A stretch of DNA of 64,000 nt, from assembly GCA_964384675.1 (NCBI GenBank), contig CAYLNK010000002.1, positions 1,516-65,515 on the forward strand. The letters run 5' to 3'. The translations under genes were made by a program, and so were the position numbers. Positions 23,611-40,720 of the stretch are shown in pieces (position 1 is the stretch's first letter; each line of letters starts with the position of its first letter). This DNA is from an uncultured Holophagales bacterium (GTDB taxonomy: Bacteria; Acidobacteriota; Thermoanaerobaculia; UBA5066). The notes below the pieces were generated by a model that saw only the letters and a list, made by a program, of their open reading frames with translations, did no database searches and was not told the DNA's origin.

Positions 23611-24387
23611 ATGACTGGGAACCATAGACCGCTCTTCGTGGTCCAGCAGCTCGTCAGACGAGACCTGGAGACGCGATTCGCCGGGAGCGCCGGCGGCCTG
23701 CTCTGGACGATCCTGAACCCCGTCATCCTCTGCCTGCTCTACGCGTTCGTCTTCTCCCGGGTCCTCCAGGTCTCGCCCCCGGAGGGCTTCCGCGGGACGT
23801 ACGCCCTCTTCGTCCTCGCCGGTCTCGTGCCGTGGCTCGGGCTCCAGGAGGCCGCCCTGCGGGGTGCGACCGCGGTGACCGACCAGGCGCACCTCGTCCG
23901 GAAGCTGTCGTTCCCGGCCGTGCTCCTTCCCCTCTCGGCCCTGGCGACGGCGCTTCTCGTGCAGCTCGCGGGCCTCGTCCTGGTGGCCGCGTTCGCGGCG
24001 GTCGACGGGGCCCTGCGCCTCGATCCGCTCCGGCTCGCCGGAGCGCTGGCGCTCCAGGCGGCCGCGCTGTCGGGCCCGATCATCGCTCTCGCCGCGGTCA
24101 ACGTCTTCGTGCGGGATCTCCCCCAGCTCCTCGCGCCTGCCCTCCAGATCCTCTTCTATCTGACTCCGATCCTCTATCCGGCCGAGAGGGTGCCTGCCTC
24201 GGTCTCCCGATTCACGGCCTTGAATCCGTTCGCGGACCTCACCGGCCTCTTCCGGGCCGGCCTCCTCGGGACACCCTCCCCACCCGTTAGCCGGCTGGTC
24301 CTGTGGGCACTCCTGAGCGCTGTGATATGCTTTTTCAGCATCCGCCTTTTCAGGCGATGCAGCCAGCATTTTTCGGACCTTCTGTAG
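23611..24387 (+). CDS. ABC-2 type polysaccharide/polyol-phosphate exporter permease (Wzm/KpsM/TagG-like)
   Basis: 258 aa, six TM segments. The N-terminal RRDLETRFAGSAGGLLWTILNP motif is typical of Wzm/TagG permeases. No adjacent ATPase. Confidence 0.8.
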   Translation: MTGNHRPLFVVQQLVRRDLETRFAGSAGGLLWTILNPVILCLLYAFVFSRVLQVSPPEGFRGTYALFVLAGLVPWLGLQEAALRGATAVTDQAHLVRKLSFPAVLLPLSALATALLVQLAGLVLVAAFAAVDGALRLDPLRLAGALALQAAALSGPIIALAAVNVFVRDLPQLLAPALQILFYLTPILYPAERVPASVSRFTALNPFADLTGLFRAGLLGTPSPPVSRLVLWALLSAVICFFSIRLFRRCSQHFSDLL

Positions 24388-24463
24388 CGCTGACTGACGT
24401 GCCTTCCTTCCTATCTCTGGCGTGGGGCTGCCGCCCCGCGAACCGTGCGCCCAAGGAGTCCTC

Positions 24464-26227
24464 TTGAAGCGTTTCCTCGCCCTGGCCCTGCCTGCCGTCG
24501 TCGCCGTCGCCGGCTGCTCCACGTCGCAGGCTCCCGGCCCGAAGGCGGCCGCGCCGGCCGCCGCCCCGCAATCCTCGCCGACCGCGACACCGACTCCGCT
24601 GCCGGAGTCGCCCGCCCTGGCCGAGGACGTGGCACGCCTCGAGCTGCAGAAGAAGTTCCGGGCCACGGAGGCCGCGGTCACGGGCAAGTCCTCGACGGGA
24701 GACGACCAGGTCACCCCCGCCCCCGTCGTCTTCGTGGATCCGGCCACCGGCAAGAAGATGGAGCGGATCCCGAAGAACCCGGCCCTCTACGTGGTGCGGG
24801 GCCGCCTCTACTTCGCTGGGCTGGCCGCCAGCAAGGGGATCCCGCTCGTCCGGGAGGATGCCGACGCCTACTACGTGGAGGTCAAGGCCGAGAAGCCCGT
24901 GGCTCCGCCAGCCTCACCCACGCCGGCTGCGGAATCCCTCGAGGGGCTCAAGCCGATCGTGGAGGTGCCCGAGGAGGAAGCCGTCGAGATCGTCCCTCCG
25001 ACGTCCGCCATCCAGATCCACCTCGAGGACGCCTCCCACGGCCTTCCCAACGCCGGAATCTGGCGGGACAACTTCGACGTCAAGGACGTGGACGGTGACG
25101 GGCGGCCCGAGATCGTGACCCCGCCCGCCCGCCTCTCGGGTGACGACATCCAGGCTTACAAGCTCAAAGGGAACCAGTGGTCCCGCGTTCCCCTCAAGTT
25201 CGACGATCCCCAGCAGATCGGCTTCGAATACGGGGGCGTCGCGGTCGGGGACATGGACGGCGACGGCCGGAACGACATCATCTTCGGGAAGCACGGGGGC
25301 GGCCCGACGATCGCCTACAACAAGGGAAAGGGGCTCTTCCGGGTGGAGACGAGGGGCCTGCCGAAGCTGATGACCACCCGGGCCCCCGTCGTCGGGGACC
25401 TGGACGGCGATGGCCGGCTCGACGTCTTCGCCGTCTCCGACATGCCGGAGGCCGCCGACATCGCGCTCGCGGAGCGGAACGGGAATGCCTCGGCGCGGCT
25501 CCCCCGGGTCGACGGCTACCTGCCGGGCTTCGACGCACGCGGCTTCCTCTCGCGGGGCGGGAAGTACGAGGAGGTCCACGCAGGCCTCGAAGAGTGCTGC
25601 TTCGGCTACAACATCGGCCTGATGGCGCCGGCCCCGGACGGCGGCAACCCGTTCTACGTCTCGTCCTGCCGCTACATCAACGGGACGGGGATGCTGTACG
25701 AGTTCGATGCCCGAACCTCGAAGTGGCTCTACGTGGGCCGCAACGTCGTCGAGCTCTACGCCAACCACGTCGGCAGCGCGGTCGGACGTTACATGGGGCA
25801 CCCCGCGGCGTTCGTGGCGGTCACGAAGAACACCCCTCCGGGGGCCTCGAAGAACGTGACCGGGGACGGTCTCTCGATCTACTACCGCGACGGGGGCGTC
25901 TGGAAGCGGACGCGCATCATGAAGGTCATCAAGGACCCGAGCGCCTCGCAGGGCCTGGCGGTGGGGGACCTGAACGGGGACGGCCTCGACGACGTGGTGT
26001 ACGCCGACGACGGCCTGCTGCGGGTGCGGGTCTTCTTCCAGACGGCCAAGGGCGGCTTCGAGGAGCTCGCCTCGGACCTCGAGCCGACCTACACGAATCA
26101 CTCGTCGGCCATCCGGCTCGCCGACGTGGACGGAGACAAGCGGCTCGACATCGTCCTGATGACCCACTACCTCACGGGCGACGAATCGCGGGCCGGGGGC
26201 TTCCGGGTGTTCCGGAACCTACGCTAG
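24464..26227 (+). CDS. Lipoprotein with FG-GAP/VCBS-like (integrin-alpha beta-propeller) repeats
   Basis: TTG start 5 nt after a perfect AAGGAG SD. Lipobox LPAVVAVAGCS. Repeated DxDGDG calcium-binding-like motifs (DVDGDGRPEI, DMDGDGRNDI, DLDGDGRLDV, DLNGDGLDDV, DVDGDKRLDI). Confidence 0.7.
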   Translation: MKRFLALALPAVVAVAGCSTSQAPGPKAAAPAAAPQSSPTATPTPLPESPALAEDVARLELQKKFRATEAAVTGKSSTGDDQVTPAPVVFVDPATGKKMERIPKNPALYVVRGRLYFAGLAASKGIPLVREDADAYYVEVKAEKPVAPPASPTPAAESLEGLKPIVEVPEEEAVEIVPPTSAIQIHLEDASHGLPNAGIWRDNFDVKDVDGDGRPEIVTPPARLSGDDIQAYKLKGNQWSRVPLKFDDPQQIGFEYGGVAVGDMDGDGRNDIIFGKHGGGPTIAYNKGKGLFRVETRGLPKLMTTRAPVVGDLDGDGRLDVFAVSDMPEAADIALAERNGNASARLPRVDGYLPGFDARGFLSRGGKYEEVHAGLEECCFGYNIGLMAPAPDGGNPFYVSSCRYINGTGMLYEFDARTSKWLYVGRNVVELYANHVGSAVGRYMGHPAAFVAVTKNTPPGASKNVTGDGLSIYYRDGGVWKRTRIMKVIKDPSASQGLAVGDLNGDGLDDVVYADDGLLRVRVFFQTAKGGFEELASDLEPTYTNHSSAIRLADVDGDKRLDIVLMTHYLTGDESRAGGFRVFRNLR

Positions 26228-26265
26228 GGCTTATGGGGAGAAAGCATATTCCGGCCGAAAAATAC

Positions 26266-26294
26266 TTGACATTCATATCCACGGTTCCTTACAT
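26266..26294 (+). promoter_or_regulatory. Candidate sigma-70-type promoter (TTGACA-17-TTACAT) in an AT-rich intergenic region
   Basis: TTGACATTCATATCCACGGTTCCTTACAT lies about 230 nt upstream of the Cys-rich secreted protein gene. The intergenic region 26228-26523 is markedly AT-richer than its surroundings. Confidence 0.35.
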
Positions 26295-26523
26295 TCCCCT
26301 TTAAGTCGGATGTGGACCATCACGAGTCTCCGCCTGGATTTGCATTCCCGTGGCGCCGCGCTGCCGCACGCCACTCGATCGAACTGGACGTCGAACATGA
26401 CAGGAACTCTCGGAGCTGCGACTCGAACGATGATGACGGAGGTGATCCAGTATCGCGGGAGGATGGAGTTTGGAGTTTCGCGAATTGAACCCGGTCTCAA
26501 TAACTGAATCGGTAGGAGTAAAG

Positions 26524-28077
26524 ATGAAAAAGCTTTCCGCTCTGGCAGCTCTCGGCCTTCTGGCGGCCTCTGGAGCTGGCTACGCGGCGACGTGCTCGCA
26601 GGACAACGTGCCTGCCGCGACGCTGCTCGTGCCCCACTTCAAGGTCAGCCGCGGCACCGCCGACGGCACGGGTCAGATCGCGCCGCAGGGCACGAACACC
26701 GTGATGGCGATCACGAACGTGTCCAACAACGGCGTCATCGCCCACTTCGTCGTGTACAACAAGTACTCGGCGCTGGTCGTCGACTTCAACGTTCCCCTCA
26801 CGGGTAACGACGTCGCGTTCTTCGACATGCGTCAGATCCTCAACGGGGACCTGAACCTGAACAAGAACCTGCAGGCGACCGGCAAGACCGACGCGTGCAC
26901 GACGACCCCCGGCTACGGCCCCACCCGGTACGTCCGCTTCACGAACCCGGACTCGACGGACAAGCTCCTGGCCATCTCGATCTATCCGCCGCTCTCCGGC
27001 TCCTTCCTCAGCGACATGCGCGACTCGCTCGACGAGTCGGGCGACGTCACGTCGTTCCTCAGCGCCAAGTCCGCCAACATCCTCGACGAGGACAACCAGC
27101 GGTGCGGCTCTGACGTCGACGGCAAGGTCGCGGGCGACTTCTCGGGGTACATCACGATTGACGTCGTGAACTACTGCACCCTGCACAACCCGTCCGACAA
27201 CGACGCGCTCTACTTCATCAACGACGCGATCGCGACGACCGGCTGGTCCCCGAACGGCTGGACGCCGAACGTGCTCATGGGCGACATCTTCTATGTCGAC
27301 CCGGCGGCCGCCGGCGGCAACATCAGCGGCGATCCGATGGTCGCCCTGGAGTTCGACGCTCGCCTCGCGACCTCGACCTGCAACTGGTTCAACATCGCCG
27401 GCGTCGCCGGTGAGACCAGCTGCAAGACCTTCTACAACCGCTACTACAACTACCCGGCCTCCCAGAACGACAACGCGGCCACCCCGGCCTCCGTCCCGGT
27501 TGCCTACCGTGGCATCGGCGACGGCCGCGAGCCGCTCACCTCGCGCTACGGCTTCCGCTACCTGTCCGACCAGACCAACGGCCTGACCTCGTGGGCCCTG
27601 GTGTGGCGCTCCGACCTCTGGACCGCCATCAGCATCGCTCCGGACAAGTCCACCACCCTCTGCGAGTGGTGGGGCGACTGCCTCTCGTCCGACATCAACA
27701 ACTGCCGCGGCTGGGGCTCCTGGGATACCCCGCACCAGCTCTCGATCGGCATCTACAACAACGACGAGGGTCAGTACGCCGCCAGCCAGCAGGGCTGCCC
27801 GTCGCCCTGCCAGACTCTCCCGACCCCGTACATCTACCTCGAGACGCAGCGCATCTCCCTCGCGGGCAACGCTGACATCGGCCTCAACGACCCGGGCTTC
27901 AAGGGCGGCTGGATCGACCTGACCATGGGCGGCTTCCCGGCCACCCACCAGGCCTGGGTTGGCATCCAGCACTCGGCCCCCGGCCAGTTCGTGTCCGTCG
28001 GCCACTCGGCCACGGTCCTCTCGAACCAGTTCATCTGCGTTCCGTCGCTCTTCGGCGCCGGCAACATCGTCAACTAG
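26524..28077 (+). CDS. Secreted Cys-rich protein (517 aa), hypothetical
   Basis: SD GGTAGGAGTAAAG-ATG. Signal peptide MKKLSALAALGLLAASGAGYAA. About 14 Cys in the mature protein and many Asn/Asp/Trp. 5' codon usage (AAA, AAG, CTT) is less GC-biased than in neighbouring genes. Followed by a canonical terminator. Confidence 0.7.
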   Translation: MKKLSALAALGLLAASGAGYAATCSQDNVPAATLLVPHFKVSRGTADGTGQIAPQGTNTVMAITNVSNNGVIAHFVVYNKYSALVVDFNVPLTGNDVAFFDMRQILNGDLNLNKNLQATGKTDACTTTPGYGPTRYVRFTNPDSTDKLLAISIYPPLSGSFLSDMRDSLDESGDVTSFLSAKSANILDEDNQRCGSDVDGKVAGDFSGYITIDVVNYCTLHNPSDNDALYFINDAIATTGWSPNGWTPNVLMGDIFYVDPAAAGGNISGDPMVALEFDARLATSTCNWFNIAGVAGETSCKTFYNRYYNYPASQNDNAATPASVPVAYRGIGDGREPLTSRYGFRYLSDQTNGLTSWALVWRSDLWTAISIAPDKSTTLCEWWGDCLSSDINNCRGWGSWDTPHQLSIGIYNNDEGQYAASQQGCPSPCQTLPTPYIYLETQRISLAGNADIGLNDPGFKGGWIDLTMGGFPATHQAWVGIQHSAPGQFVSVGHSATVLSNQFICVPSLFGAGNIVN

Positions 28078-28107
28078 GTCTCGAGAGAAACCCGGTTTTT
28101 CCGGATC

Positions 28108-28142
28108 GGAGCGGGGGGAAACCCCCGCTCCTTTCTTTTTTT
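28108..28142 (+). terminator. Rho-independent terminator
   Basis: GGAGCGGGGGG-aaa-CCCCCGCTCC followed by TTTCTTTTTTT, immediately downstream of the Cys-rich secreted protein gene. Confidence 0.75.
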
Positions 28143-28218: not shown

Positions 28219-28256
28219 GCCAGGGGTACGGGTTTGTCCTTCCTCTTCGTGCAGGG

Positions 28257-31200
28257 GTGAAAATGGTCTCAGCTCCGCTTCGCCGATGCGTTCTGCTGTC
28301 GGTCGCCGCCACCGCGCTCCTCGGGGCCCCCGTGAGGGATGCCGAGGCCCAGTGCACCGTGAGCGCCCCCCAGCAGTTCCTGTCGAACCCGTCGCCCTAC
28401 CCTCGTTTCCGGACGGCGGGATACGTCAACAGTCTGGGTCTCTACAAGGACCAGAGCGGCATCCAGCGGATGCTCTCCATCGACAACTACGGCTACTACA
28501 TCTTCAATCTGGCGGACCCCAGCTCTCCGAGCTACATGAGCCAGCTCGACATCGAGCAGACGGTGCCTCGAGTCGGGGACACGTTCTCGATCCTGGGCTC
28601 GCTGGCGACCGCGCCGGACGGGTCGAGGGCTCTCGTCACCACGGGCCACACCGCCGAGAACGGCGTCCTCCTCATGAAGGGGAACAGCAGCGCATTCGTC
28701 TACGGAGGCGATTTCAAGCCGAAGGAAGCGCGCGCCGTGGTCCTCGACCAGAACGGGAGCAAGTGGTGGGGATACGCCCTCAAGGACCAGTATCTCTACG
28801 TCGCCGACGTGAGCAGCTTCTGGACCGGCAACCCGTCGACCAAGCCTAACTCGGTCCCCTCGAGCTTCTACGACATCGGGCCCGTCGTTCCCCGCAGCGC
28901 GTCGGTGGCGAACCACCTGATCGTCTTCGCCGTCGGATCCTCGGGAATTCGCGTGGCCGACGCTCGCAACCCAGGATCCGGCTCGTTCCCGATCTACTCC
29001 GTGAGCGCGACGACGCTCGGCTTCGGGGCCGGCACCAGCGTCGAGCGCGTCAGCTCGACCGTCCACCCGAACGGCACGGTCTACATCGTCGCGGAGGGCG
29101 TGATCAACGGGAACCAGACCGCTGGCTTCGTGATGGGGACCCTCTCCTCCGACGGCAGCAGCTTCAGCCGGAAGGGGAACCTCTGGATGCCGCCGTCGCC
29201 GTATTCGGGGACGGGTTCGATCACCTCGGCCTCCCGCCCTGCTCTGGTGTCCGATTCCAGCAACGGGGAGGTCTGGGCCTTCGTGTGGGGCGGTTCCGCC
29301 GCCAGCCGCTTCAAGCTCTTCGGCCTCTCTCTGAAGGAATGGGAGGGGAGCGGCAGCCCCTCCGACCTGACCCCGAACGCGTCGTACCAGTCCTCCGACT
29401 CGTGGGCCACCATCGCGACGACCGAGCCGCTCAAGGTCGGCTCGACGATCTACCTCTACGTGGGCGCGACGAACTCCGGGCAGGCCCTCACGGTATCGTG
29501 TACGTCCCAGAACTCGCCACCGACCGCCACGATCTCCGTCACGAACGTCTCCGACGGCGACACGGTTTTCGTCGGTGACTCGCTCCGCGTGCACGCTGCC
29601 GTGGCGCCCGCTCCTTCCTCGTCCCAGCTCGCGGACTGGGCCTTCGACTTCAACTACCACTCGAACGAGGGGTCGGGATCGACCTATCCCATCCTGCAGA
29701 CGCCGGACCGCACGCAGTCGGCCGCGAGCAGCCAGCCGTTCTCGAACGAGCTCGTGATAGGTCCGTGTGACCCGCGCACCGGCGGGGCGCTGGCCAGCGG
29801 GGCGGGTTGCTGGGCCTCCGTGCTGGGAGACTTCGCCTCGACGGCCGAGGGAGCGGTGCAGCCGCTCCGATTCGCGATGGAGGCGAGGAACGGGTTCGGC
29901 TCCTCTTCGCTGCGCACCTTCACGATCAACTGGAAGATCCCCAAGGCGAGGTTCACCCCCGTCGCCGTGCTGAACGGCGGCCAGCTCAGCGATGCGTCGG
30001 AGGGGAGTCCCCGCAGCGACGGCGCCGGGTTCCGCTGGTACTTCGGGGAGACGCCGGGCAGTACCGCCGTGGTCGAGGACGTCGGCTGCCGGGACAAGCG
30101 GACCTGCACGCACCCGTTCAACAACGGCAAGGGAAAGTACAAGGCCTGGATCCAGGCGGCGTACTCGAACGGCTTCGTCACGGCGGGCGTGCCGGCCAGC
30201 TCCGCCAGCCTTCGCGACGTCGACGTCCAGGACGTCGTCCTCGGTGTGACGGGCGCCTCCGCGTCCGTGACCCGTACGGGCAGCGCGACGAGCATCCCGC
30301 TCAAGGTGACGAAGACCGCGTCGGGCTCGATCAACGACTGCCCGGCCAGCGGCAGCCCGTACGCCTACAGCATCTGCAAGACGACCGACTCCGCCTGCGC
30401 CAGCGCCAGCTCGGCCACCTACCTCCCTCTCACCGTGGACGGTAGCGGGAACGCCCCCATCTCGTTCCTCTTCCCGGAGAACGGCGACTACTACCTGCGC
30501 GTGAAGTACACCTACGGAACCGGCAGCTGCACGTCGCCCCTCTCGGAGTCGTGGAAGCCGGGCCTGGAGAGCGACCCGACGGCGTTCAAGATCAGCGCGA
30601 CGGACGTCGTCACCGTTCCCTCGATCTACCTCGCCGGGCTCAACGGCTCGCAGGAGTACCCGCTCTGCGCTCTCTATTGCAGCGGCGGCAAGTTCAGCGT
30701 CTCACCGGGCCAGACCATCGTCGTGTACGCCTACGTGAACGGCGTCGTCGATCCGAATCCGCCCCCGGGTCTCAGCTGGTCCTTCGGCTCCGCGGGAAGC
30801 CCGAGCCCGTCGAGCGGCAACGGGCAGGGCGTCCGGTTCTCGTATTCGACGGCGGCCACGACCGCGACGATCACCATGCAGGGGTATCCCCAGACGTACA
30901 CCTTCCTCGGCAAGGTGTCCGGCACCACGCCGCCGCCGCCCACCGGCCTCTCGGTGACCGCGTCGGCCAACCCCAACCCGGGCACGGTGAACCAGGCGGT
31001 GTCGTTCACGGCGGCCGCCTCGGGGGGGACCTCGCCCTACACGTACTCGTGGAACTTCACCGACGGGGCCACGTCGAACCAGCAGAACCCCTCCCACTCC
31101 TACTCGGCGACCGGCTCGTACTCCGTGGTCTGCACCGCGACCGATCAGACCGGTGCGCAGGCATCCCGGACGGTCTTCCTGACGGTCAATCCCGTGGCCG

Positions 31201-33284
31201 CGCCCACGCTCGCGGTGGCGCTCACCGACACGCAGACCGGGACGGGGCTCTTCGCGTACCAGGGGAAGTTCCAGGCCGCCAGCGGACAGAGCATCACCTT
31301 CACCGCACGGCTCGGTGAGTCCCTGGCCTCGAACGTGATCTGGGTGTTCGGTGACGGCCAGCAGTCGGCGGCGAACCCGGCCACCTACGTCTACACGAAC
31401 ACGACGGCGTCGGACAAGACGTTCAACGGGTCGATCTCGAACGGTGGCTCCACGATCAATTTCGCCGTGCTGGTCACGAAGGCCGTCAACCAGAACCCGA
31501 CGGGCGCCTACACGTATCGCTACGTCGACACCAGCGCCGTCGACATCGCCAAGGTCGACGCGTCCAAGGCGGTCCGCTTCACGGCCTCCGAGGACGCCGA
31601 CAGCTACGACTGGGACTTCGGGGACAGCAGCCTCCACGGGACCACCAAGAGCGTCGACCACACGTTCCCCGCGACCGGCGGCGCGTACCGGGTCGCGCTC
31701 AAGGAAGTGAAGGCGGGCACGACGTACACCACGGCGAGCCCGGTGACCTTCACGATCCCGGCCCCCCCCGAGCCGCCGCGCTGGATGCTCGTCGGCATGG
31801 CGTCGACGGAGGGGCAGGGCGGCGCGTACTGGAGGTCCGACGTCACGATCTACAACCCGAGCGCCGAGCAGGGGATGGCGCTGCGCCTCGCCTTCCTGGA
31901 CGCCAGCAAGACGGTGAAGCCCGAGGACCTCAAGTGGGCGGTCGTGATCCTGCCTCCGCTCGGGACCAAGACGGTCGTCGACATCCTCGGGAACGGGGCG
32001 CTCCCGGACTGGGGCCTCTTCACGGCGAACCGCTCGGGGGCCCTGCTCATCCAGGGCGACACGCTCCCGACCAACACCGACCCGGTGGTGGTCGGGAAGA
32101 CCTACAACACGGGTACCGTGGAATCGGGGACCTACGGCCTCTCGATCCCGGCGGTGCGCGTCACCGAAGGCGTCAAGCCCTCGAGCGTGGCGGCGGCCAG
32201 CCAGCTGATCGGCCTCCGGCAGACCGACGATTTCTACACGAACCTCGCTGTGGTGAACCTGCGCGCCGACGACGCCGAGGTAGAGGTCCGGTTCTACAAC
32301 GCCGCCGGCGCCCTGGTCGGCCAGCCGGTCACCTACCAGGTCGGGCCGTACGGCATCCAGCAGAAGAACAACATCCTGCGCGACGTCGCGGGGTATCCGG
32401 ACCCGCTCGACTCGTTCCGGGCCGTGCTGACGATCAAGAAGGGGACCGGGGTCACGGCGTTCGCGTCGGTGACCGACGTGAGGTCCAAGGACCCGATCTT
32501 CATCGCCCCCCAGCCGAAGACGAACCCGTCCTACCGTCTGCCGGGCATCGTCCGCGCGGCGGGGGCAAACAACTCGCTGTTCCGGAGCGACGTCGTGCTC
32601 TACAACACGTCCTCCGCGGCGCGCACGGCGACGCTCGCGTTCACCTACCGCTCGTCGAAGGACACCTCGGTCACCAACAAGTTCTGGGAAATCCCCCTCG
32701 CCGCCAACCAGGTGGTGGACATCAACGACTTCGTCAAGACGCAGCTGAACCTGGCGGAGTCCGACGACACCTCGTACTACGACTCGTTCGTCGACGTCCA
32801 GCAAAACGACTCGGGGCAGGACCCGATCCTGGTCATGGGCCGCACCTACAACAAGCAGGACAACGGCAGCACCGGGCTGCAGGTGAAGGCCTTCGGGCCC
32901 GACGACACCGCCTCGGCGTCGGGCGTGAAGAAGCGCCTGATCCTGACGGGGCTCAAGTCGTCCGCCGACCAGTCGGTCGGGTTCCGCTCCAACGTCGCCG
33001 TCTTCCTCGGCACACCCGGTCAGTCGGGCTCGGCGCAGCTGAAGATCCGACTCTACGACGGCAACGGCGACTCGCAGGGGACGCTCAACGTGAGCCTGAG
33101 CGCGGCCAAGCCGTTCCTCCAGATCGGCGACCGCGAGCTGTTCGGAGGCGCGCGGTGGGACCTGTCGAACATCACGGTCGTCGTCGACGTCATCTCCGGG
33201 ACGGTGCCCGTCGCGGGATACGCGACCACGCTCGACAACCGGTCCAACGACGCGGTCTTCACCGGCGCGGTCGCCCTCCCGTAG
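28257..33284 (+). CDS. Giant secreted protein 1 (1675 aa): conserved N-terminal domain, PKD domain, two tandem C-terminal ~250-aa modules
   Basis: Signal peptide MKMVSAPLRRCVLLSVAATALLGAPVRDAEA. The N-terminal ~430 aa is about 70-80% identical to the next gene. PKD domain at about nt 30940-31200 (…SPYTYSWNFTDG…GSYSVVCTATDQTG…). Two C-terminal modules share GGAYWRSDVTIYNPS / NNSLFRSDVVLYNTS motifs. Confidence 0.8.
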   Translation: MKMVSAPLRRCVLLSVAATALLGAPVRDAEAQCTVSAPQQFLSNPSPYPRFRTAGYVNSLGLYKDQSGIQRMLSIDNYGYYIFNLADPSSPSYMSQLDIEQTVPRVGDTFSILGSLATAPDGSRALVTTGHTAENGVLLMKGNSSAFVYGGDFKPKEARAVVLDQNGSKWWGYALKDQYLYVADVSSFWTGNPSTKPNSVPSSFYDIGPVVPRSASVANHLIVFAVGSSGIRVADARNPGSGSFPIYSVSATTLGFGAGTSVERVSSTVHPNGTVYIVAEGVINGNQTAGFVMGTLSSDGSSFSRKGNLWMPPSPYSGTGSITSASRPALVSDSSNGEVWAFVWGGSAASRFKLFGLSLKEWEGSGSPSDLTPNASYQSSDSWATIATTEPLKVGSTIYLYVGATNSGQALTVSCTSQNSPPTATISVTNVSDGDTVFVGDSLRVHAAVAPAPSSSQLADWAFDFNYHSNEGSGSTYPILQTPDRTQSAASSQPFSNELVIGPCDPRTGGALASGAGCWASVLGDFASTAEGAVQPLRFAMEARNGFGSSSLRTFTINWKIPKARFTPVAVLNGGQLSDASEGSPRSDGAGFRWYFGETPGSTAVVEDVGCRDKRTCTHPFNNGKGKYKAWIQAAYSNGFVTAGVPASSASLRDVDVQDVVLGVTGASASVTRTGSATSIPLKVTKTASGSINDCPASGSPYAYSICKTTDSACASASSATYLPLTVDGSGNAPISFLFPENGDYYLRVKYTYGTGSCTSPLSESWKPGLESDPTAFKISATDVVTVPSIYLAGLNGSQEYPLCALYCSGGKFSVSPGQTIVVYAYVNGVVDPNPPPGLSWSFGSAGSPSPSSGNGQGVRFSYSTAATTATITMQGYPQTYTFLGKVSGTTPPPPTGLSVTASANPNPGTVNQAVSFTAAASGGTSPYTYSWNFTDGATSNQQNPSHSYSATGSYSVVCTATDQTGAQASRTVFLTVNPVAAPTLAVALTDTQTGTGLFAYQGKFQAASGQSITFTARLGESLASNVIWVFGDGQQSAANPATYVYTNTTASDKTFNGSISNGGSTINFAVLVTKAVNQNPTGAYTYRYVDTSAVDIAKVDASKAVRFTASEDADSYDWDFGDSSLHGTTKSVDHTFPATGGAYRVALKEVKAGTTYTTASPVTFTIPAPPEPPRWMLVGMASTEGQGGAYWRSDVTIYNPSAEQGMALRLAFLDASKTVKPEDLKWAVVILPPLGTKTVVDILGNGALPDWGLFTANRSGALLIQGDTLPTNTDPVVVGKTYNTGTVESGTYGLSIPAVRVTEGVKPSSVAAASQLIGLRQTDDFYTNLAVVNLRADDAEVEVRFYNAAGALVGQPVTYQVGPYGIQQKNNILRDVAGYPDPLDSFRAVLTIKKGTGVTAFASVTDVRSKDPIFIAPQPKTNPSYRLPGIVRAAGANNSLFRSDVVLYNTSSAARTATLAFTYRSSKDTSVTNKFWEIPLAANQVVDINDFVKTQLNLAESDDTSYYDSFVDVQQNDSGQDPILVMGRTYNKQDNGSTGLQVKAFGPDDTASASGVKKRLILTGLKSSADQSVGFRSNVAVFLGTPGQSGSAQLKIRLYDGNGDSQGTLNVSLSAAKPFLQIGDRELFGGARWDLSNITVVVDVISGTVPVAGYATTLDNRSNDAVFTGAVALP

Positions 33285-33350
33285 CACCACCCGCCGACAC
33301 CATCCTTCCGGCCCGGGCGTGAGCCCGGGCCGTTCCCGTCTGGAGCCCCG

Positions 33351-36300
33351 ATGTCCCGCGCCTCGTCCCGACGCCTCCTGATCGCCGCGGTCATCGCGCT
33401 CTCCCTGGGGCCGTGGGACCGCTCCGCGAGCGCGCAGTGCACGGTGGGCCCGCCGTACGAGTTCCTCTCGGCGCCCGGCCCCTACTCGCGCTTCCGGACC
33501 GAGGGCTACGTCAACAGCCTCGGCGTCTACGAGGACGGGAGCGGGGCCCGCCGGCTCCTCTCGGTCGACAACTACGGCTACTACGTCTTCAGCCTCGGGA
33601 CCCCTGGAGCGCCGAGCCACATGGGCCAGCTCGACATCGAGCAGACCGTGCCGCGCCTCGGCGACACGTTCTCGATCCTGGGACCGCTCGCCGTGGCGCC
33701 CGACGGCTCGCGCGCGCTCGTCTCCACCGGGCACACCGCGGCGAACGGCGTCCTCCTGATGAAGGGCGCGAGCAGCTCGTTCTCGTACGGAGGTGACTTC
33801 AAGCCGACCGGGGCCCGCGACGTGGTGCTCGACCAGGTCGGGAGCAAGTGGTGGGGCTACGCCCTGAAGGACGGTTACCTGTACGCGGCCGACGTGACGT
33901 CGTTCTGGAGCGGCGTCCCGGCCACGAAGCCGGGCTCGATCGCTTCGGAATTCCACGGGATCGGGAGCGTGGTGCCACGGAGCGCGTCCGTGGCGAACCA
34001 CCTGATCGTCTTCGCGACCGGCGGCGGCGTGACCGTGGTCGACGCTCGTAACCCGACGTCGTACTTCCCGTACAACGCGCACTCCGCGGCCTCCCTCGGG
34101 TTCCCGGCCGGCACGAGCCTGGAGCGGGTCAGCGCGGTCACGCGTCCCAACGGCACGGTCCTGATCGTGGCGGAGGGAGTCGTGAACGGGAACCAGACCG
34201 CGGGCTTCGTGATGGGGACGCTCTCGGCCGACGGGGGCACGTTCACGCAGCTCGGGAATCGCTGGGTGCCTCCCGCGCCGTTCTCGGGAGACGGCTCGAT
34301 CACGACGGGCTCCAGGCCCGCGCTCGTGTCGGACGGCGACGCGGGCGACGTCTGGATCTTCGTCTGGGGCGGCTCGTCGACGGGCCAGCTCAAGCTGTAT
34401 GGCCTCTCGGCGAACGACTGGGAGACACGTGGAGCTCCGGCCGACCTCACGCCGACGGCGTCGTACCAGGCCTCCTCGAGCTGGGCCTACGTCGCCACCA
34501 CCGAGCCGCTCATGGTCGGCTCGAGCATCTACCTCTACGTCGGCGCGACCAACTCCGCGCAGGCGATCCGCCTGAGCTGCAAGGCCCCGGCTGCCACGCC
34601 GTCGATCTCGCTCGCGTTCGTGAACGGCGGCGTCGAGTATCCGCTCTGCAGCATGGCGGGCTCCTGCGGCGGGGGGCGCTTCTCGGTGGAGACCGGGCAG
34701 GAGCTGGTCGCGTACGCCTACAAGGGCGGCGTGAAGGACCCGACGCCGCCGGCGGGGCTGGCCTGGTCGTTCGGCGGCGCCGGAGCCCCGTCTCCGACCG
34801 GCGGGACCGGCCAGGGCGTTCATTTCACGTTCACGGCGCCCGCCGGGGACGTCGCGGTCACCATGACCGGGTATCCCGAGACGTACACCTTCACGGGGGC
34901 CGTCTCGAATGCCCTCGCCGTCACGGCCACGGCCGCTCCCAATCCAGGGCGGGTGGGGGAGCCGGTGCAGCTGGGCGCCACGGTGACGGGCGGAACGCCT
35001 CCCTACACGTACGTCTGGACGTTCGGCGACGGCACCACGTCGGCGCTGCCGGCGCCCGTCCACGCCTACGCGAACGCGGGCACCTACTCCGTGACGTGCT
35101 CGGTCAGGGACGCCAACGGGCTCACGAAGGCGGCCGTCGTGCCGGTGACCGTCGACGTCGTGGTCCCGTCCGCGCTCGCGGCCGCGGTGACCGACACCGA
35201 GACCGGCGCGCCTCTCGTCGAATCCGGTGGCCTGCTCCTTTCGGCGAGCGGGCAGAGCCTCACCTTCACGGCGCGCGACGGCGAGACCCTGGCCCCGTCG
35301 GTCGTGTGGAGGTTCGGGGACGGCCAGCTCTCGGCTCTCAACCCGGTGACCCACGTCTACGGGAACAACGGCGCCCTGGACCTCGTCTACAACGGCTCGA
35401 TCTCCGCGGGCGGCGTCACGATCCTCTTCTCGATCGCCGTCGCGCCCGCGGACGCGCCTCCGACGGGCGCCTACTCCTACACCTATTCCGACGGCGGCCC
35501 CGTCGTGGCCACGAAGGTCGATCGGGGGCGCGCCGTCCGGTTCACCGCCGCCGAGAAGGCGGACGGCTACGACTGGGACTTCGGGGACGGCAGCCCGCAC
35601 GGCGCGGCGCGAAGCGTCGACCACACCTTCCCGACGACGGGAGGGGACTACACGGTGACCCTCCGCGAGACGAAGGGCGCCCTGACGGCCGTCACGGCGA
35701 GTCCGGTGACGTTCCACGTTCCGCCTCCCCCCGAGCCGCCACGCTGGATGCTGGTCGGCATGGCGTCGACCGAAGGGCAGGGCGGGGCGTACTGGCGTTC
35801 CGACGTCACGATCGGCAACCCGAGCGGCGCGGCGCCGATGACGGTGCGTGTCGCGCACCTCGACGCCGAAAGGAGCGTCCCGGCGTCCGGGCTCGCCTGG
35901 TCGGTGGTCACGCTCGCCCCGCGCGCCACGCGAACCCTCGTCGATGTCCTCGGCGCCGGCGCCCTGCCCGAGTGGGGCCTCGCGCCCGCGAACCGCTCCG
36001 GCGCCCTTCTCGTGGAGGGCGTCTCGTTGCCCTCGGACGTCGAGCCGGTCCTGGTGGGAAGGACGTACAACACCGGGACCTCGGGGTCCGGGACGTTCGG
36101 GCTCTCGATCCCGGCGGTCCGTACCACGGAGGGGATCCGTCCCCAGGGCGCGGCGTGGGCGTCGCAGCTGATCGGCCTCCGCCAGACCGAAGCGCACTAC
36201 ACGAACCTCGCGGTCGTGAACCTCGGGACGGACGACGCCGAGGTCGAGGTGAGGTTCTTCGATCCGACGGGCGCGGTGCTCGGGCAGCCGGTGCTGTACC

Positions 36301-37247
36301 AGGTCGGGCCGTACGGGATCCAGCAGCGGAACAACGTGCTCCGGGACGCCGCGGGCGTCGCGAGCCCGACCGACTCGTTCCGCGCGTCTCTCACCGTCCG
36401 CCGTGGGACCGGCGTCACCGCGTACGCGTCCGTCACCGACGTGGCGTCCAAGGACCCGGTCCTGAGCGTCCCGGCGGCCGGCGTGAGCGCGTCTTATCGC
36501 CTGCCGGGGATCATCCGGGCGGCGGGCGCGAACGGCTCGCTCTTCCGGAGCGACGTGGTCCTGTACAACGCCGCGGCGGCGGCGCGAGTCGCCACGTTCA
36601 CTTACTCGTATCGCACGAGCCGCGACCCGTCGCTCCGCAGCCTCACCTGGCAGGCTCCGCTCGCGGCCGGGCAGGTCCTCGACATCGTCGACTTCGTGAA
36701 GGCCCGGCTTCCCGTGCCCGACGGCGACGAGACGTCGTACACGGACTCCTTCGTCGACGTGGCGCAGGACGACGGGGGGCCGGATCCGATCCTCGTGATG
36801 GGACGCACGTACAACCAGCAGGGCTCGGGCAGCACCGGACTCCAGGTGAAGGCGTTCGGACCGGCGGACACCGCGTCCGCCGCCGGGCCGAAGCGGCGTC
36901 TCTACCTCACCGGACTCCGCTCCTCGACCGACGGGACGACGGGCTTCCGCTCCAACGTCGCGCTCTTCCTGGGGACGCCGGGAGCCCAGGGGACGGCCCA
37001 GGTGGAGGTGAAGGTCCTGGACGGAAGCGGCGACGTGAAGGGCACGACCGGCGTCACCCTCTCGGCGGGCCAGCCGTTCGTCCAGCTCGGGGACCGGACG
37101 CTCTTCGGCGGGGCGGCCTGGGACCTCTCGAGCATCACGGTCGTCCTCGAGGTGGTCGCCGGCCCGGAGCCGGTCGCCGCCTACGCCACGTCCCTGGACA
37201 ACGTGTCGAACGACGCGGTGTTCCTGCCCGCGGCTCCGCTCCCGTAG
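33351..37247 (+). CDS. Giant secreted protein 2 (1298 aa), tandem paralog of protein 1
   Basis: Signal peptide followed by SASAQCTVGPPYEFLSAPGPYSRFRTEGYVNSLGVYEDGSG…, closely paralogous to gene 1. PKD domain at about nt 34920-35160 (PPYTYVWTFGDGTTS…GTYSVTCSVRDANG). The same two C-terminal modules are present. It lacks a ~370-aa segment that gene 1 has. Confidence 0.8.
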   Translation: MSRASSRRLLIAAVIALSLGPWDRSASAQCTVGPPYEFLSAPGPYSRFRTEGYVNSLGVYEDGSGARRLLSVDNYGYYVFSLGTPGAPSHMGQLDIEQTVPRLGDTFSILGPLAVAPDGSRALVSTGHTAANGVLLMKGASSSFSYGGDFKPTGARDVVLDQVGSKWWGYALKDGYLYAADVTSFWSGVPATKPGSIASEFHGIGSVVPRSASVANHLIVFATGGGVTVVDARNPTSYFPYNAHSAASLGFPAGTSLERVSAVTRPNGTVLIVAEGVVNGNQTAGFVMGTLSADGGTFTQLGNRWVPPAPFSGDGSITTGSRPALVSDGDAGDVWIFVWGGSSTGQLKLYGLSANDWETRGAPADLTPTASYQASSSWAYVATTEPLMVGSSIYLYVGATNSAQAIRLSCKAPAATPSISLAFVNGGVEYPLCSMAGSCGGGRFSVETGQELVAYAYKGGVKDPTPPAGLAWSFGGAGAPSPTGGTGQGVHFTFTAPAGDVAVTMTGYPETYTFTGAVSNALAVTATAAPNPGRVGEPVQLGATVTGGTPPYTYVWTFGDGTTSALPAPVHAYANAGTYSVTCSVRDANGLTKAAVVPVTVDVVVPSALAAAVTDTETGAPLVESGGLLLSASGQSLTFTARDGETLAPSVVWRFGDGQLSALNPVTHVYGNNGALDLVYNGSISAGGVTILFSIAVAPADAPPTGAYSYTYSDGGPVVATKVDRGRAVRFTAAEKADGYDWDFGDGSPHGAARSVDHTFPTTGGDYTVTLRETKGALTAVTASPVTFHVPPPPEPPRWMLVGMASTEGQGGAYWRSDVTIGNPSGAAPMTVRVAHLDAERSVPASGLAWSVVTLAPRATRTLVDVLGAGALPEWGLAPANRSGALLVEGVSLPSDVEPVLVGRTYNTGTSGSGTFGLSIPAVRTTEGIRPQGAAWASQLIGLRQTEAHYTNLAVVNLGTDDAEVEVRFFDPTGAVLGQPVLYQVGPYGIQQRNNVLRDAAGVASPTDSFRASLTVRRGTGVTAYASVTDVASKDPVLSVPAAGVSASYRLPGIIRAAGANGSLFRSDVVLYNAAAAARVATFTYSYRTSRDPSLRSLTWQAPLAAGQVLDIVDFVKARLPVPDGDETSYTDSFVDVAQDDGGPDPILVMGRTYNQQGSGSTGLQVKAFGPADTASAAGPKRRLYLTGLRSSTDGTTGFRSNVALFLGTPGAQGTAQVEVKVLDGSGDVKGTTGVTLSAGQPFVQLGDRTLFGGAAWDLSSITVVLEVVAGPEPVAAYATSLDNVSNDAVFLPAAPLP

Positions 37248-37279
37248 GGGCGGGATCCACCTTCGGGTACCCTCGAGCC

Positions 37280-38488
37280 GTGGCGTTCGAGCCGGCGGTC
37301 CCCGTGGACGACGTGATCGCGTTCACGGATCTCTCCAAGGTGTATCGCGTCTACGCGAGCCCGCGCGAGAGGCTCGTCTCGGCCCTCTTCGGGGGCGGGC
37401 GGGGCACCGAGGTCCACGCGCTGCGCGGCGTGTCGGGTCGCGTCCCGAGGGGGCGTGTCATGGGGCTGGTGGGAGAGAACGGCTCGGGCAAGAGCACCCT
37501 CCTGAAGGTCCTCTCCGGCACGACTCCGCCGACGGCCGGCACGGTGAGCGTATCGGGCCGCGTGGCGTCGATCCTGGAGCTCGGCTCCGCCTTCCACCCC
37601 GAGGTGACGGGACGGAAGAACGTCGTCCTGCAGGCCGCGCTCCTCGGTCTCTCGCGCGCCGAGACGGAGGCCGCGCTTCCGGAGATCGAGCGCTTCGCCG
37701 AGCTGGGGGAGTTCTTCGACCGGCCGGTGAAGACGTACTCGTCCGGGATGGCGATGCGTCTCGCGTTCGCGGCGGCCACCGCCGTCCTGCCCGACGTCGT
37801 GCTCCTCGACGAGGCGCTCGCCGTCGGAGACGGCCGCTTCCAAAAGAAGTGCGTGGACCGGATCCACGATCTGAAGGCCTCGGGCCGGACGATCCTCTTC
37901 TGCAGCCACGCGATGTACTACGTCTCCACGATCTGTGACGAGGCCATCTGGCTGCGACATGGCGAGGTCGCCGCCTCGGGGGACGCGCAGAAGGTCGTCC
38001 TCGAGTACGAACGGTTCCTCGCCGGCAAGGAGCAGCGCGACCAGTCGGCGGCTCCGGCGCACGCCGTCCAGCCCGATTCGCACGGCCGGATCGTCTCGGT
38101 CGACGTCGTCGGCGCCGGCGGGGAGCCGCGCACCGCCTTCGCTCCGGGCGAGCCGTGGGGGGTCGTGCTCGACCTCGCCGTCGACCGCGCGGACCGCCCG
38201 GTCCAGATCCACCTCGCGGTGTCGACGCGTGACAACGTCGTTTGCCTTTCCTTCGACACGCGCCTGGACGGCTTCGGCCCGCTCTTGGGCGCGGAGCGGT
38301 ACCGCGTGCGGATCGGGCTCGACTCGCTCCCGCTCGCGAAAGGGGAATTCATCGTCTACGCGTACCTGGCCGACGAGAAATCCCTGGCGCTCTACGACGC
38401 CCGGAGCGACCGCGCCTTTCACGTGGAGTCCGAGGCGTGGCAGAGCGGCCTCTTCCTGGCGCCGGGGCGCTGGGAGCGCCTGACCTGA
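37280..38488 (+). CDS. ABC transporter ATP-binding protein, Wzt/KpsT/TagH type with C-terminal Wzt_C-like substrate-binding domain
   Basis: Walker A GENGSGKST, signature YSSGMAMRL, Walker B VVLLDEALAVGD, H-loop CSHAM. About 170-aa C-terminal beta-rich extension as in Wzt. Start set to the in-frame GTG at 37280. No strong SD, so the start is uncertain. Confidence 0.75.
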   Translation: MAFEPAVPVDDVIAFTDLSKVYRVYASPRERLVSALFGGGRGTEVHALRGVSGRVPRGRVMGLVGENGSGKSTLLKVLSGTTPPTAGTVSVSGRVASILELGSAFHPEVTGRKNVVLQAALLGLSRAETEAALPEIERFAELGEFFDRPVKTYSSGMAMRLAFAAATAVLPDVVLLDEALAVGDGRFQKKCVDRIHDLKASGRTILFCSHAMYYVSTICDEAIWLRHGEVAASGDAQKVVLEYERFLAGKEQRDQSAAPAHAVQPDSHGRIVSVDVVGAGGEPRTAFAPGEPWGVVLDLAVDRADRPVQIHLAVSTRDNVVCLSFDTRLDGFGPLLGAERYRVRIGLDSLPLAKGEFIVYAYLADEKSLALYDARSDRAFHVESEAWQSGLFLAPGRWERLT

Positions 38489-38597
38489 GGTCCCGGCGCG
38501 CCATTCGCCTCGGGTTGCGAGCCCCGGGCCGGGTTGCTATCGTGGAACGAGGACAGGCCGGGCTCGCACCCTCGCGGCCGCCGGATCCGGCTCTCCC

Positions 38598-39593
38598 ATG
38601 AACGACGAACATCGCTCTCCGGCCAACCCTCCCCCGGCGCACGTGTCGGTCCGCTCGCTCTTCCGTGGGGCGGCGGGCGAGACGTTCGACGAGCGGCTGA
38701 GGCTCATGGCGTCGTCCGACCCGGCCGACTGGGACGGCGTGGCGTTCCCCACCGAGGTGGCGATCGAGCTGGCCGCGCTCTGCAACCTGGCCTGTGTCAT
38801 GTGCCCGGTCCCGACGACGAAGCGGCCGCCGGAGCTGATGAAGGAGAAGCTCTTCCTCGAGACGGTGGACCAGCTCGCCACCGAGAAGGGCTACGTCCTC
38901 CTGCCTCAGGGCTTCGGCGAGTCGATGCTCCACCCGAAGTGGGCGGGCCTCATCGCGGCCGCGCGGGAGCGCGGGATCGGCCCGATCATCATGCTGACGA
39001 ACGGCATGCTCCTCAACGAGAAGAACGTGTCGCGAGTCCTGGAGCTGGACGTCGACGCGCTCGTCGTCTCGATCGACGGCACGACCGCCGCGACGTACGC
39101 GTCGGTGCGCGTCGGCGGAGACCTCGACGTCGTCGAGCGGAACGTCGAGCTCTTCCTGGCGCGGCGTGGCGCCAGGTCCTCCCCGAAGCTGGTGGTGCGC
39201 ATCATCCGGATGCAGGACACGGCGAACGAGATCGACGCCTTCTTCGAGCGGTGGACGCCGCGCCTTCAGGGTGGCGACGAGATCCGGATCAACGAGTACA
39301 ACAACTGGTCGGGGCGCGTCGAGGACAGGGCGGCGGCCGGCGCCGCCGCCCCCGACGTCGCGCACCGCGCGCCGTGCCGCATGCTCTGGTCGAACCTCTC
39401 CGTCCACGCCGACGGCAAGGTGTCGGCGTGCTGCCACGACAGCGAGGACGAGCTCGTCGTCGGCGACCTCGCGGCGGGCGACACGCTCCAGTCGATCTGG
39501 CGCGGAGAGAAGCTGAGGGCCCTCCGGACGATCCACCGCGAGGGCCGCACCGCCGAGCTGCCGATCTGCCGCGACTGCCGCAACTGGACCTGA
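38598..39593 (+). CDS. Radical SAM / SPASM-domain protein (putative peptide- or protein-modifying maturase, anSME-like)
   Basis: CNLACVMC (Cx3Cx2C) radical-SAM cluster motif. C-terminal Cys cluster (CRMLW…SACCHDS…ICRDCRNW) is typical of the SPASM/twitch auxiliary Fe-S domain. Confidence 0.8.
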   Translation: MNDEHRSPANPPPAHVSVRSLFRGAAGETFDERLRLMASSDPADWDGVAFPTEVAIELAALCNLACVMCPVPTTKRPPELMKEKLFLETVDQLATEKGYVLLPQGFGESMLHPKWAGLIAAARERGIGPIIMLTNGMLLNEKNVSRVLELDVDALVVSIDGTTAATYASVRVGGDLDVVERNVELFLARRGARSSPKLVVRIIRMQDTANEIDAFFERWTPRLQGGDEIRINEYNNWSGRVEDRAAAGAAAPDVAHRAPCRMLWSNLSVHADGKVSACCHDSEDELVVGDLAAGDTLQSIWRGEKLRALRTIHREGRTAELPICRDCRNWT

Positions 39594-40720
39594 GCGGGCC
39601 GGCCATCCTTCGCCGAGTCGTCGACCGATTCCGTGGGCTCCTGGGCGCGGGAGCCAGCCGCGACGTCGCCCCGGCGGAGCCGGCTCCGTCCGGCCCGGCG
39701 GGGCCGAGCGTCCTCTACATCCTCCCCGCCACGACGATCTACGGCGGGCACCGGGTTGTCTTCGAGCACGCGAACCTCCTCGTCGCCCGAGGCTACGACG
39801 TCACCGTGGTGAGCCCCGGGCCCGCGCAGCAGTGGCATCCCCTGGTGGCGCGCTATCTCACCGTCGACCTCGACGACCCCGCCTCGATGCCGAAGGCCGA
39901 CATCGTGATCGGCACGTCGTGGACGACGATCCGCGCGGCGGTGGCGACGGGGGCGCCCACGATCTTCCACTTCTGCCAGGGGTTCGAGGGGGTCCATCGC
40001 GAGTACGCGCCGATCCTGCCCAAGATCGACGAGGCGTACGCCGTGCCGATCCCGAAGCTCCTCATCTCGGCGCACCTCGAGCCCGTGCTGCGCGAACGGT
40101 ACGGCTCGCGGTGCTACCTGATCGGGCAGTCGATCGACACCACGATCTTCACGCCCGGACCCTTCCGTGAGGACGCCAGGCCGCTCCGGGTGGGTGTGGT
40201 CGGGCCGTACGGGATCCGCCCCAAGGGGATCGACGAGCTGCTCCGGGGGCTGCGCCTCACGAGGGAGGCCGGGCACGAGATCGAGGTGCACCACGCGTCG
40301 CCCGCGTCCCTGGACGAGGGAGAGGCTGCGCTCGGTGTCACCGACCGCTACTACGAACGCCTTTCGACCGCCGAGATGGCGGAGTTCTACCGGGGCCTCG
40401 ACGTCTACATCCATCCGTCGTGGGACGAGGAGGGCTTCCCGCTGCCGCCGCTCGAAGCCATGGCGAGCGGCGTGGCGGTCGCCCTCACCGACATCCGCTC
40501 GTTCAGGCCGATCCCCGAGGACGCCGCCCTGCGCTTCCGTTGGGGAAGCCCCGAGGCGATCCCGCCGCTCTTCTCCCGCTTCGCCGACCCGGCCACGCGC
40601 CGGCGTCTGCGGGAGGCCGGTCTCCGCCTGATCGCGGACTACCGTCACGATGCGGTGATGGACAAGGTCGAGGAGGCGTTCGCGGCCGAGGGGGCCGGGC
40701 GCCGGCGGGGCCCAGGCTAG
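39590..40720 (+). CDS. Glycosyltransferase family 4 (GT-B fold)
   Basis: Conserved GT4 core through to the EX7E region (HPSWDEEGFPLPPLEAMASGVAV). The N-terminus VLYILPATTIYGGHRVV is typical. Between the rSAM stop and this N-terminus the frame has no ATG/GTG/TTG, only a CTG overlapping the rSAM stop, so the start is unresolved. Confidence 0.65.
   Translation: MSGPAILRRVVDRFRGLLGAGASRDVAPAEPAPSGPAGPSVLYILPATTIYGGHRVVFEHANLLVARGYDVTVVSPGPAQQWHPLVARYLTVDLDDPASMPKADIVIGTSWTTIRAAVATGAPTIFHFCQGFEGVHREYAPILPKIDEAYAVPIPKLLISAHLEPVLRERYGSRCYLIGQSIDTTIFTPGPFREDARPLRVGVVGPYGIRPKGIDELLRGLRLTREAGHEIEVHHASPASLDEGEAALGVTDRYYERLSTAEMAEFYRGLDVYIHPSWDEEGFPLPPLEAMASGVAVALTDIRSFRPIPEDAALRFRWGSPEAIPPLFSRFADPATRRRLREAGLRLIADYRHDAVMDKVEEAFAAEGAGRRRGPG

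Follow-up and report, generated by a model that had tools for sequence, protein, structure and literature searches.

Here we describe a probable cell-envelope locus in a 64,000-nucleotide (nt) stretch, hereafter the window, from an uncultured Holophagales bacterium (GenBank assembly GCA_964384675.1, contig CAYLNK010000002.1, positions 1,516 to 65,515 of the forward strand). In our preferred reading, to which we give a probability of roughly 60%, this is a conserved locus of an uncultured Thermoanaerobaculia lineage that encodes an ordinary Wzm/Wzt exporter, with its two halves ancestrally apart, beside candidate glycan-binding coat proteins. The locus would comprise five modules: a divergent unit of an XRE-family regulator, a TPR protein and a secreted protein; the permease gene wzm with an FG-GAP lipoprotein gene, which is constant; a monocistronic and probably very highly expressed gene for a 517-amino-acid (aa) protein; one giant PKD-domain protein (two here) ending in two TM1070/ASRT-like β-sandwich domains; and the ATPase gene wzt, heading a strain-variable cassette that here holds a twitch-type radical SAM enzyme, a GT4 glycosyltransferase and a polytopic GT-C-like protein. 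The genes and predicted signals, by window position, are as follows.

21146–22198, minus strand: secreted 350-aa protein of undefined function, with a signal peptide; last gene of the divergent XRE-TPR-unknown unit
22202–23128, minus strand: TPR protein, 308 aa (TPR_12, E 3e-14)
23135–23563, minus strand: XRE-family helix-turn-helix regulator, divergent from wzm (HTH_3, E 7e-15)
23611–24387, plus strand: Wzm-like ABC-2 permease (ABC2_membrane), 258 aa (PF01061, 52 bits, cut-off 26.9)
24422–26227, plus strand: FG-GAP β-propeller lipoprotein (FG-GAP_3, E 7e-30; lipobox AVAGC)
26266–26295, plus strand: predicted σ70-like promoter of the 517-aa gene, TTGACA-18-TACATT (10/12 matches)
26438–26448, plus strand: STAB-SD-like box GGAGGTGATCC of the 5′ leader, unique in the window and 86 nt upstream of the ATG
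26524–28077, plus strand: secreted 517-aa protein with a signal peptide and 12 Cys (open reading frame (ORF) from 26470, real ATG at 26524)
28108–28141, plus strand: predicted strong intrinsic terminator after the 517-aa gene, a 10-bp stem with 9 G-C pairs, then TTTCTTTTTT
28257–33284, plus strand: giant secreted protein 1, 1675 aa (PKD_4, E 6e-23)
33351–37247, plus strand: giant secreted protein 2, 1298 aa, tandem paralog of giant 1
37280–38488, plus strand: Wzt ATPase with a C-terminal Wzt_C domain (ABC_tran, E 2e-21; Wzt_C, 33.2 bits, cut-off 30.4)
38598–39593, plus strand: radical SAM enzyme with a twitch-type domain (Radical_SAM and SPASM matches)
39590–40720, plus strand: GT4 glycosyltransferase (Glyco_trans_1_4, E 4e-12)
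40721–42262, plus strand: polytopic membrane protein, possibly of the GT-C fold (PMT, 20.4 bits, E 4e-4, cut-off 22.7)

Genes were called in this window of about 71% GC by the GC content of third codon positions (GC3) and then scanned with Pfam and NCBIfam. All nine genes of the first-pass annotation were recovered in place, and its observation that the permease and the Wzt ATPase are truly separated by surface-protein genes, with 12.9 kb between them, was borne out. The permease has five to six hydrophobic segments, and its top NCBIfam matches are Wzm/RfbD and KpsM, both under the equivalog cut-offs. The Wzt sequence shows the Walker A/B and signature motifs (GENGSGKST, YSSGM and LLDEAL), with the Wzt_C match spanning residues 268–378. 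Its top NCBIfam matches are TagH and Wzt/RfbE, and its homologs at 60–71% identity number in the hundreds.

The layout recurs across the lineage. A scan of one genome per species with the 517-aa protein alignment gave 51 loci, onto which the window proteins were then mapped; nearly all are labelled as Thermoanaerobaculia, Holophagales or Acidobacteriota metagenome-assembled genomes (MAGs). The permease, FG-GAP and 517-aa genes occur in the same order in 44 of the 51, the FG-GAP gene after the permease and a PKD giant following the 517-aa gene in this recurring order. The divergent XRE gene is also present in 42 of the loci with this trio, where it adjoins the permease, and a promoter-like site is predicted upstream of it in the window (23603–23576, minus strand). 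The 350-aa, XRE, TPR and permease genes stand together in 36 of the 51 loci. The TPR protein is kept in 36 loci at a median identity of 58%, and the 350-aa protein, which has no Pfam or NCBIfam match and gained none at Pfam E ≤ 1, has a median identity of 43.5% over the 33 loci with a long alignment. An AsnC-GlgC-DnaJ housekeeping flank identical to that of the window is found in 34 loci. Relatives of the permease form a tight group at 48–54% identity (42–55% across the syntenic loci) before a drop to 36%, and the same neighborhood surrounds the members of the tight group. Because cluster genes share only 30–50% identity across loci, against 80–86% for the flanks, the cluster is fast-evolving yet fixed in position.

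This conservation bears directly on how the two halves of the exporter came to be separated. The first-pass annotation had suggested an accessory island, with the surface-protein genes inserted between once-adjacent wzm and wzt. Such an account can point to the usual adjacency of wzm and wzt, a typical feature and not a biochemical requirement, and to the somewhat lower GC at 26–29 kb. Against it, the intervening genes proved conserved and syntenic, an outcome that the first-pass annotation had itself named as counting against insertion; the same order occurs in about 45 species-level genomes between identical housekeeping flanks, and the same wzm–wzt split is found in 21 species-level genomes. 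GC3 is 0.92–0.94 across the intervening genes, the same as in the rest of the window, and none of the genes called in the window is a mobile-element gene or a tRNA. The lower GC of the Cys-rich 517-aa gene had been noted at the outset; its GC1 is 0.55 and its GC3, 0.93–0.94, is like that of its neighbors, so the difference reflects amino-acid composition and gives no sign of foreign origin. Any insertion would also need to be older than the split of the group as a whole. We therefore give the island account almost no credence, insertion or horizontal transfer being ruled out by GC3 and synteny, and the separation of wzm and wzt is most likely ancestral, predating the diversification of the lineage. 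In the literature we found nothing on this locus or on non-adjacent wzm and wzt.

In 21 loci, a wzt gene (61–70% identical) and a GT4 gene (35–43% identity) follow a single giant, 5.4–8.2 kb past the 517-aa gene, and the wzm–wzt distance in relatives is about 10 kb. The 13-kb spacing in the window results from the tandem duplication of the giant gene, which is common to the window and its closest relative. Seven loci, all of a sister group, lack wzt within 10 kb. In one of these genomes wzt is found on the same 88-kb contig as wzm, but about 36 kb off and on the other strand, in a cluster of GT2, GT4, PIG-L and carbamoyltransferase genes that lacks a permease within 10 kb; a similar case was found in another relative. 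Throughout, the FG-GAP, 517-aa and giant genes accompany wzm in every case, and wzt is always among glycan-synthesis genes.

Wzm and Wzt most likely pair as one exporter of the Wzm/Wzt type (type V), judging from gene content and family type. They are the only unpaired ABC halves in the window, which has no other unpaired permease. The claim that Wzt is the only matching ATPase needs some qualification: a second ABC ATPase, of the DrrA type, is encoded at 270–1214 (minus strand), but it has its own ABC-2 permease directly downstream, running off the window edge, and we rejected it as an alternative partner of Wzm. The DrrA-type gene itself adjoins a heme O synthase-like ORF (1214–2082) and CtaA (2082–3050), all within window positions 1–3050 on the minus strand. 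The wzm and wzt genes are neither adjacent nor predicted to be co-transcribed, as the 12.9 kb between them contains a predicted promoter and a strong terminator.

The 517-aa gene is probably monocistronic and very highly expressed, a reading drawn from its conserved promoter, leader box, terminator and top codon bias. The pattern TTGAC[AT]-N17-TAnnnT stands at the equivalent relative position in 47 related leaders, which are those of the related loci whose leaders could be extracted. The leader is about 180–220 nt long and poorly conserved outside a GGAGGTGAT box, which is present in exact form in all 47 leaders, 61–125 nt upstream of the start codon. The box may be a STAB-SD-like mRNA stabilizer in this Acidobacteriota lineage; it would base-pair with the conserved tail at the 3′ end of 16S rRNA. 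An Rfam scan of the window gave zero matches. More than 40 loci have almost the same terminator downstream of the 517-aa gene, GCGGGCGGC-TTCG-GCCGCCCGC followed by a T-run. Codon bias, too, is stronger in this gene than in any other of the window (C3/(C3+G3) 0.68, GGC/Gly 0.86, CGC/Arg 0.73), and by the glycine measure the gene stands above ribosomal protein L31. Paralogs of the 517-aa protein also occur alone, away from the cluster, in two fetched contigs (L020 and L055, match at 10001–11600 in each). Both keep the conserved terminator and lack the promoter motif, one is in the same MAG as another of the loci (L047), and the L055 copy looks frameshifted; such lone copies are either frameshifted or in contexts that tell little.

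Rather than a single operon, the region appears to hold several transcription units, with wzm and wzt on different transcripts, as suggested by the conserved promoter, the terminator and the hairpins after the giants. A GC hairpin followed by TTTT lies after the giant and before wzt in 14 of 19 testable group A loci; in the window, the gap between the second giant and wzt is 32 nt and has no hairpin. The FG-GAP lipoprotein gene is probably co-transcribed with wzm, from which it is separated by 34–76 nt. Between the two giants of the window (33285–33350) there is a GC hairpin, GGCCCGGGC-GTGA-GCCCGGGCC, with no T-run. Since it resembles the hairpin and TTTT that follow the single giant of relatives, it may be what is left of such an element, copied when the giant gene was duplicated in tandem.

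By our sequence searches, the 517-aa protein is a member of a new family. It has zero matches in Pfam, NCBIfam or the PDB sequences, and its 238 close homologs are every one named hypothetical. An exhaustive profile search extended the family to 1,394 representative clusters, some of them proteins of 700–1,900 aa that repeat the N-terminal module of about 105 aa; the names of distant members are likewise all "hypothetical", none informative. As a secreted protein whose very high, monocistronic expression is deduced from sequence alone, it has the features of a major surface protein. The AlphaFold2 model of the protein is confident (predicted local distance difference test (pLDDT) score 82.5, predicted template modeling (pTM) score 0.88). 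No whole-protein fold match was found for it in the PDB; the top matches, TM1070 and ASRT, are to a sub-domain only.

In each giant there is a signal peptide, then an N-terminal region (about 430 aa) that matches no family, PKD domains and a pair of C-terminal repeats, each about 250 aa long; giant 1 has an extra middle region of about 345 aa. Identity between the two giants is 66% in the N-terminal 430 aa and 60.5% in the C-terminal 900 aa, and the two C-terminal repeats are 27–30% identical to each other. Their non-PKD parts gained nothing new from Pfam at E ≤ 1. The model of the repeat has TM1070 and ASRT as its top matches, so both kinds of surface protein carry the TM1070/ASRT fold match. 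The ASRT/TM1070 superfamily is predicted to bind sugars, cell-surface proteins included (PMC2739507). The proteins described here have no detectable sequence similarity to that β-sandwich superfamily (ASRAH), and the matched portion of about 100 residues lies within far larger proteins. Just after the signal peptide, at position 2–3 of the predicted mature protein, the 517-aa protein (A/VTC..., 26587–26595) and both giants (QCTV..., 28350–28355 and 33435–33440) have a conserved Cys, which is not within a lipobox.

The cassette headed by wzt is strain-variable, a pattern as in serotype-like glycan loci. In the closest relative (L063), the permease is 97% identical, and nucleotide identity is 93% for the giants and 91–94% for cNMP, GGT and the genes beyond. 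Its wzt is 82% identical in nucleotides and 84% in protein (87% in the nucleotide-binding domain (NBD) and 80% in the C-terminal domain). In place of the radical SAM, GT4 and GT-C-like genes, this relative has a methyltransferase and a GT4-hydrolase (GT4-DLH) fusion, with an additional, weakly radical SAM-like 294-aa gene before wzt (L063:9068–9952). Further downstream in the window, a 1051-aa fused MFS/spermidine-synthase gene (NF037959, 43327–46540) is also absent from it. The Wzt carbohydrate-binding domain recognizes the glycan cap, for example a methyl group (PMC9445017, PMC3482155), and the variable-cassette pattern fits this established role in reading the terminal cap.

The radical SAM enzyme of the cassette had been labelled a radical SAM/SPASM maturase. 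Beyond its CX3CX2C core it has just five Cys (CX13GX4C...CX2C, with the stop codon next), and thus lacks the full seven-Cys SPASM motif with two auxiliary clusters; the tail is better described as a twitch-type, truncated SPASM domain like that of BtrN. It matches the NCBIfam model N_Twi_rSAM, with all its NCBIfam matches far under cut-off, and its best matches among solved structures are BtrN (E 6.5e-9) and BlsE, a cytosylglucuronate decarboxylase (E 1e-5). There is no room for a precursor peptide gene beside it, given an upstream gap of 109 nt and a downstream overlap of 4 nt. Orthologs on other contigs (62–65% identity) adjoin Wzt and GT4; in the one such contig that is fully annotated (L068), GT2, PIG-L and two further radical SAM genes are also there. 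The similarity to BtrN and BlsE, the missing space for a precursor and the orthologs in Wzt glycan clusters make a peptide maturase doubtful. By its similarity to BtrN and BlsE, its five-Cys tail and its orthologs' setting, the enzyme is probably a sugar-tailoring enzyme, and possibly makes the glycan cap. Relatives have up to three distinct radical SAM genes in a single Wzt-GT4-GT2-PIG-L glycan cluster (L068:3577–8984; L063:9068–9952), which suggests unexplored radical chemistry on polysaccharides in the Thermoanaerobaculia lineage.

For the last gene of the cassette, which encodes a 513-aa protein, the GT-C-like assignment is tentative. At least eight hydrophobic segments agree with it, and the PMT match falls below threshold (20.4 versus 22.7 bits). 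The protein has no PDB sequence match, gained nothing new from Pfam at E ≤ 1, and has no homolog in any related locus fetched, the closest relative included.

In the mechanism that we propose, Wzm and Wzt would form an exporter of the O-polysaccharide or exopolysaccharide (EPS) type for a lipid-linked glycan, the capped end of which the C-terminal domain of Wzt would read. A surface coat would be made up of the 517-aa protein and the giants, binding the exported glycan through their sugar-binding-type β-sandwiches; we favor a glycan-binding coat because both carry domains of this type. A functional tie between the exporter and glycan genes and the surface proteins is plausible from gene order, as the permease gene always keeps its place with the surface-protein genes (FG-GAP, 517-aa and giant), even when wzt is 36 kb off. 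Several points weigh against this picture. Synteny is just as strong in the housekeeping flanks, so that adjacency by itself, even if conserved, is no proof that the surface proteins share a function with the exporter, and the surface and exporter genes apparently lie in separate transcription units, the promoter and terminator calls being themselves predictions from sequence only. The shared fold match covers about 100 residues, the model of the giants' repeat is modest (pLDDT 66), and hhalign gave a probability of 0.2% for sequence kinship between the 517-aa protein and that repeat, a kinship we rejected. The Wzt C-terminal domain is barely more divergent than the NBD (80% versus 87%) though the cassettes differ, which lends weak support to a sharp divergence of this domain together with the cassette. 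The genes of the presumed partners Wzm and Wzt are apparently on separate transcripts and, in some genomes, 36 kb apart. Finally, the window contains no initiating transferase, ligase or outer-membrane export component, and one clear glycosyltransferase (GT4).

One alternative is that the genes are neighbors by descent only, an ordinary O-antigen or EPS exporter alongside functionally unrelated surface proteins in a rarely rearranged region. The predicted separation of transcription units, the AsnC, GlgC and DnaJ flanks that are as syntenic as the cluster, and the ability of wzt to move off without the surface genes all suit it. It has more difficulty with wzm, which is probably co-transcribed with the FG-GAP lipoprotein gene and never apart from its module, with the sugar-binding-type folds of the surface proteins, and with the order that the cluster genes keep despite their fast evolution. 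We regard this alternative as doubtful, though far from negligible. A more elaborate form of the coat would be an undescribed polysaccharide-anchored protein coat, in which capped glycan from the split pump anchors a new family of abundant surface proteins, made up of the 517-aa protein and the giants and attached by lectin domains of the ASRT/TM1070 type. In it, the FG-GAP lipoprotein would be a dedicated periplasmic partner of Wzm, and the radical SAM enzymes would make a strain-specific cap; this version is speculative, and on balance we would not expect it to hold in full.

The exported glycan could instead be moved covalently onto the 517-aa protein, the giants or both, in the manner of surface-layer (S-layer) glycoproteins, with the GT-C-like protein as transferase. 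A surface-protein gene beside an ABC-transporter-type glycan cluster does resemble the slg loci of Gram-positive bacteria, the polytopic protein has its weak PMT match, and PMT_2 proteins lie near Wzt in one relative. The surface proteins, however, are universal among the related loci while the GT-C-like gene is absent from every one, and this strain-specificity makes covalent glycosylation through it less likely; no Wzy_C/PglL-type oligosaccharyltransferase was found in the window either. We consider this scenario quite unlikely. Only a little less credence goes to the idea that the permease and Wzt are not partners at all, each being paired with an unseen partner elsewhere in the genome. Their predicted separate transcripts and the 36-kb distances would fit, and a more distant permease homolog (P0033) is also without an adjacent ATPase, but its context is unrelated. 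At none of the loci inspected does either gene have a second partner within 10 kb, both genes are of the Wzm/Wzt-TagGH-KpsMT type, and they are linked within 10–13 kb in at least 21 genomes. The ordinary Wzm/Wzt exporter, ancestrally divided and set beside candidate glycan-binding coat proteins, thus stays our preferred reading.

The exporter resembles the WzmWzt systems for O-antigen export of E. coli O9a, Klebsiella and Aquifex aeolicus in its ABC-2 permease and its NBD with a Wzt_C domain. A GT4 gene lies immediately downstream of the region of the exporter genes, and relatives have a methyltransferase after wzt, as expected for a methyl cap (PMC9445017, PMC3482155). Unlike those systems, the halves are 13 kb apart here on predicted different transcripts, there is no WbdD-like kinase/coiled-coil terminator, a twitch-type radical SAM enzyme replaces the methyltransferase, and the window holds very few glycosyltransferases. 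In the slg loci of Geobacillus and Paenibacillus, and in the O-antigen-anchored RsaA S-layer of Caulobacter, an abundant surface protein is tied to an ABC-transporter-type glycan. The 517-aa gene is similar to these in its predicted organization, as it would be transcribed alone from a strong promoter, through a long leader and up to a terminator. It differs in having no sequence or fold homology to SgsE, SpaA or RsaA, in a presumably diderm Acidobacteriota host without oligosaccharyltransferase or type I secretion genes at the locus, and in a Cys-containing product; its 12 Cys are atypical of S-layer proteins. The radical SAM enzyme shares with BtrN and BlsE, which act on sugars or aminocyclitols, the CX3CX2C core, a single-cluster twitch-type C-terminal domain and a carbohydrate-pathway context, and differs from them in its low identity and sub-threshold NCBIfam matches. 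The invariant GGAGGTGAT of the leaders is like the STAB-SD mRNA stabilizer of Bacillus thuringiensis cry3A (PMC12970973), a likeness of sequence in a host that is an Acidobacteriota member and not a Firmicute.

Two other genes in the window are unrelated to this locus. One encodes another giant secreted protein of 1922 aa (53063–58831, minus strand), with an NHL/teneurin-like β-propeller and DUF11 repeats, and the other is a small PqqD-like gene nearby (60342–60821, plus strand).

The Thermoanaerobaculia are widespread and almost wholly uncultured, and their cell envelope is essentially undescribed. The locus serves as a class-wide marker region, and the 517-aa protein is a strong candidate for a major surface protein, from an unannotated family of at least 1,394 sequence clusters. 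The understanding of Wzm/Wzt exporters is not overturned; rather, the locus is an example of their halves being stably kept apart, with wzt moving together with serotype-like variable genes. Radical SAM enzymes within the glycan clusters may perform new sugar chemistry. The most useful leads are the unannotated, probably highly expressed surface-protein family and its conserved leader element.

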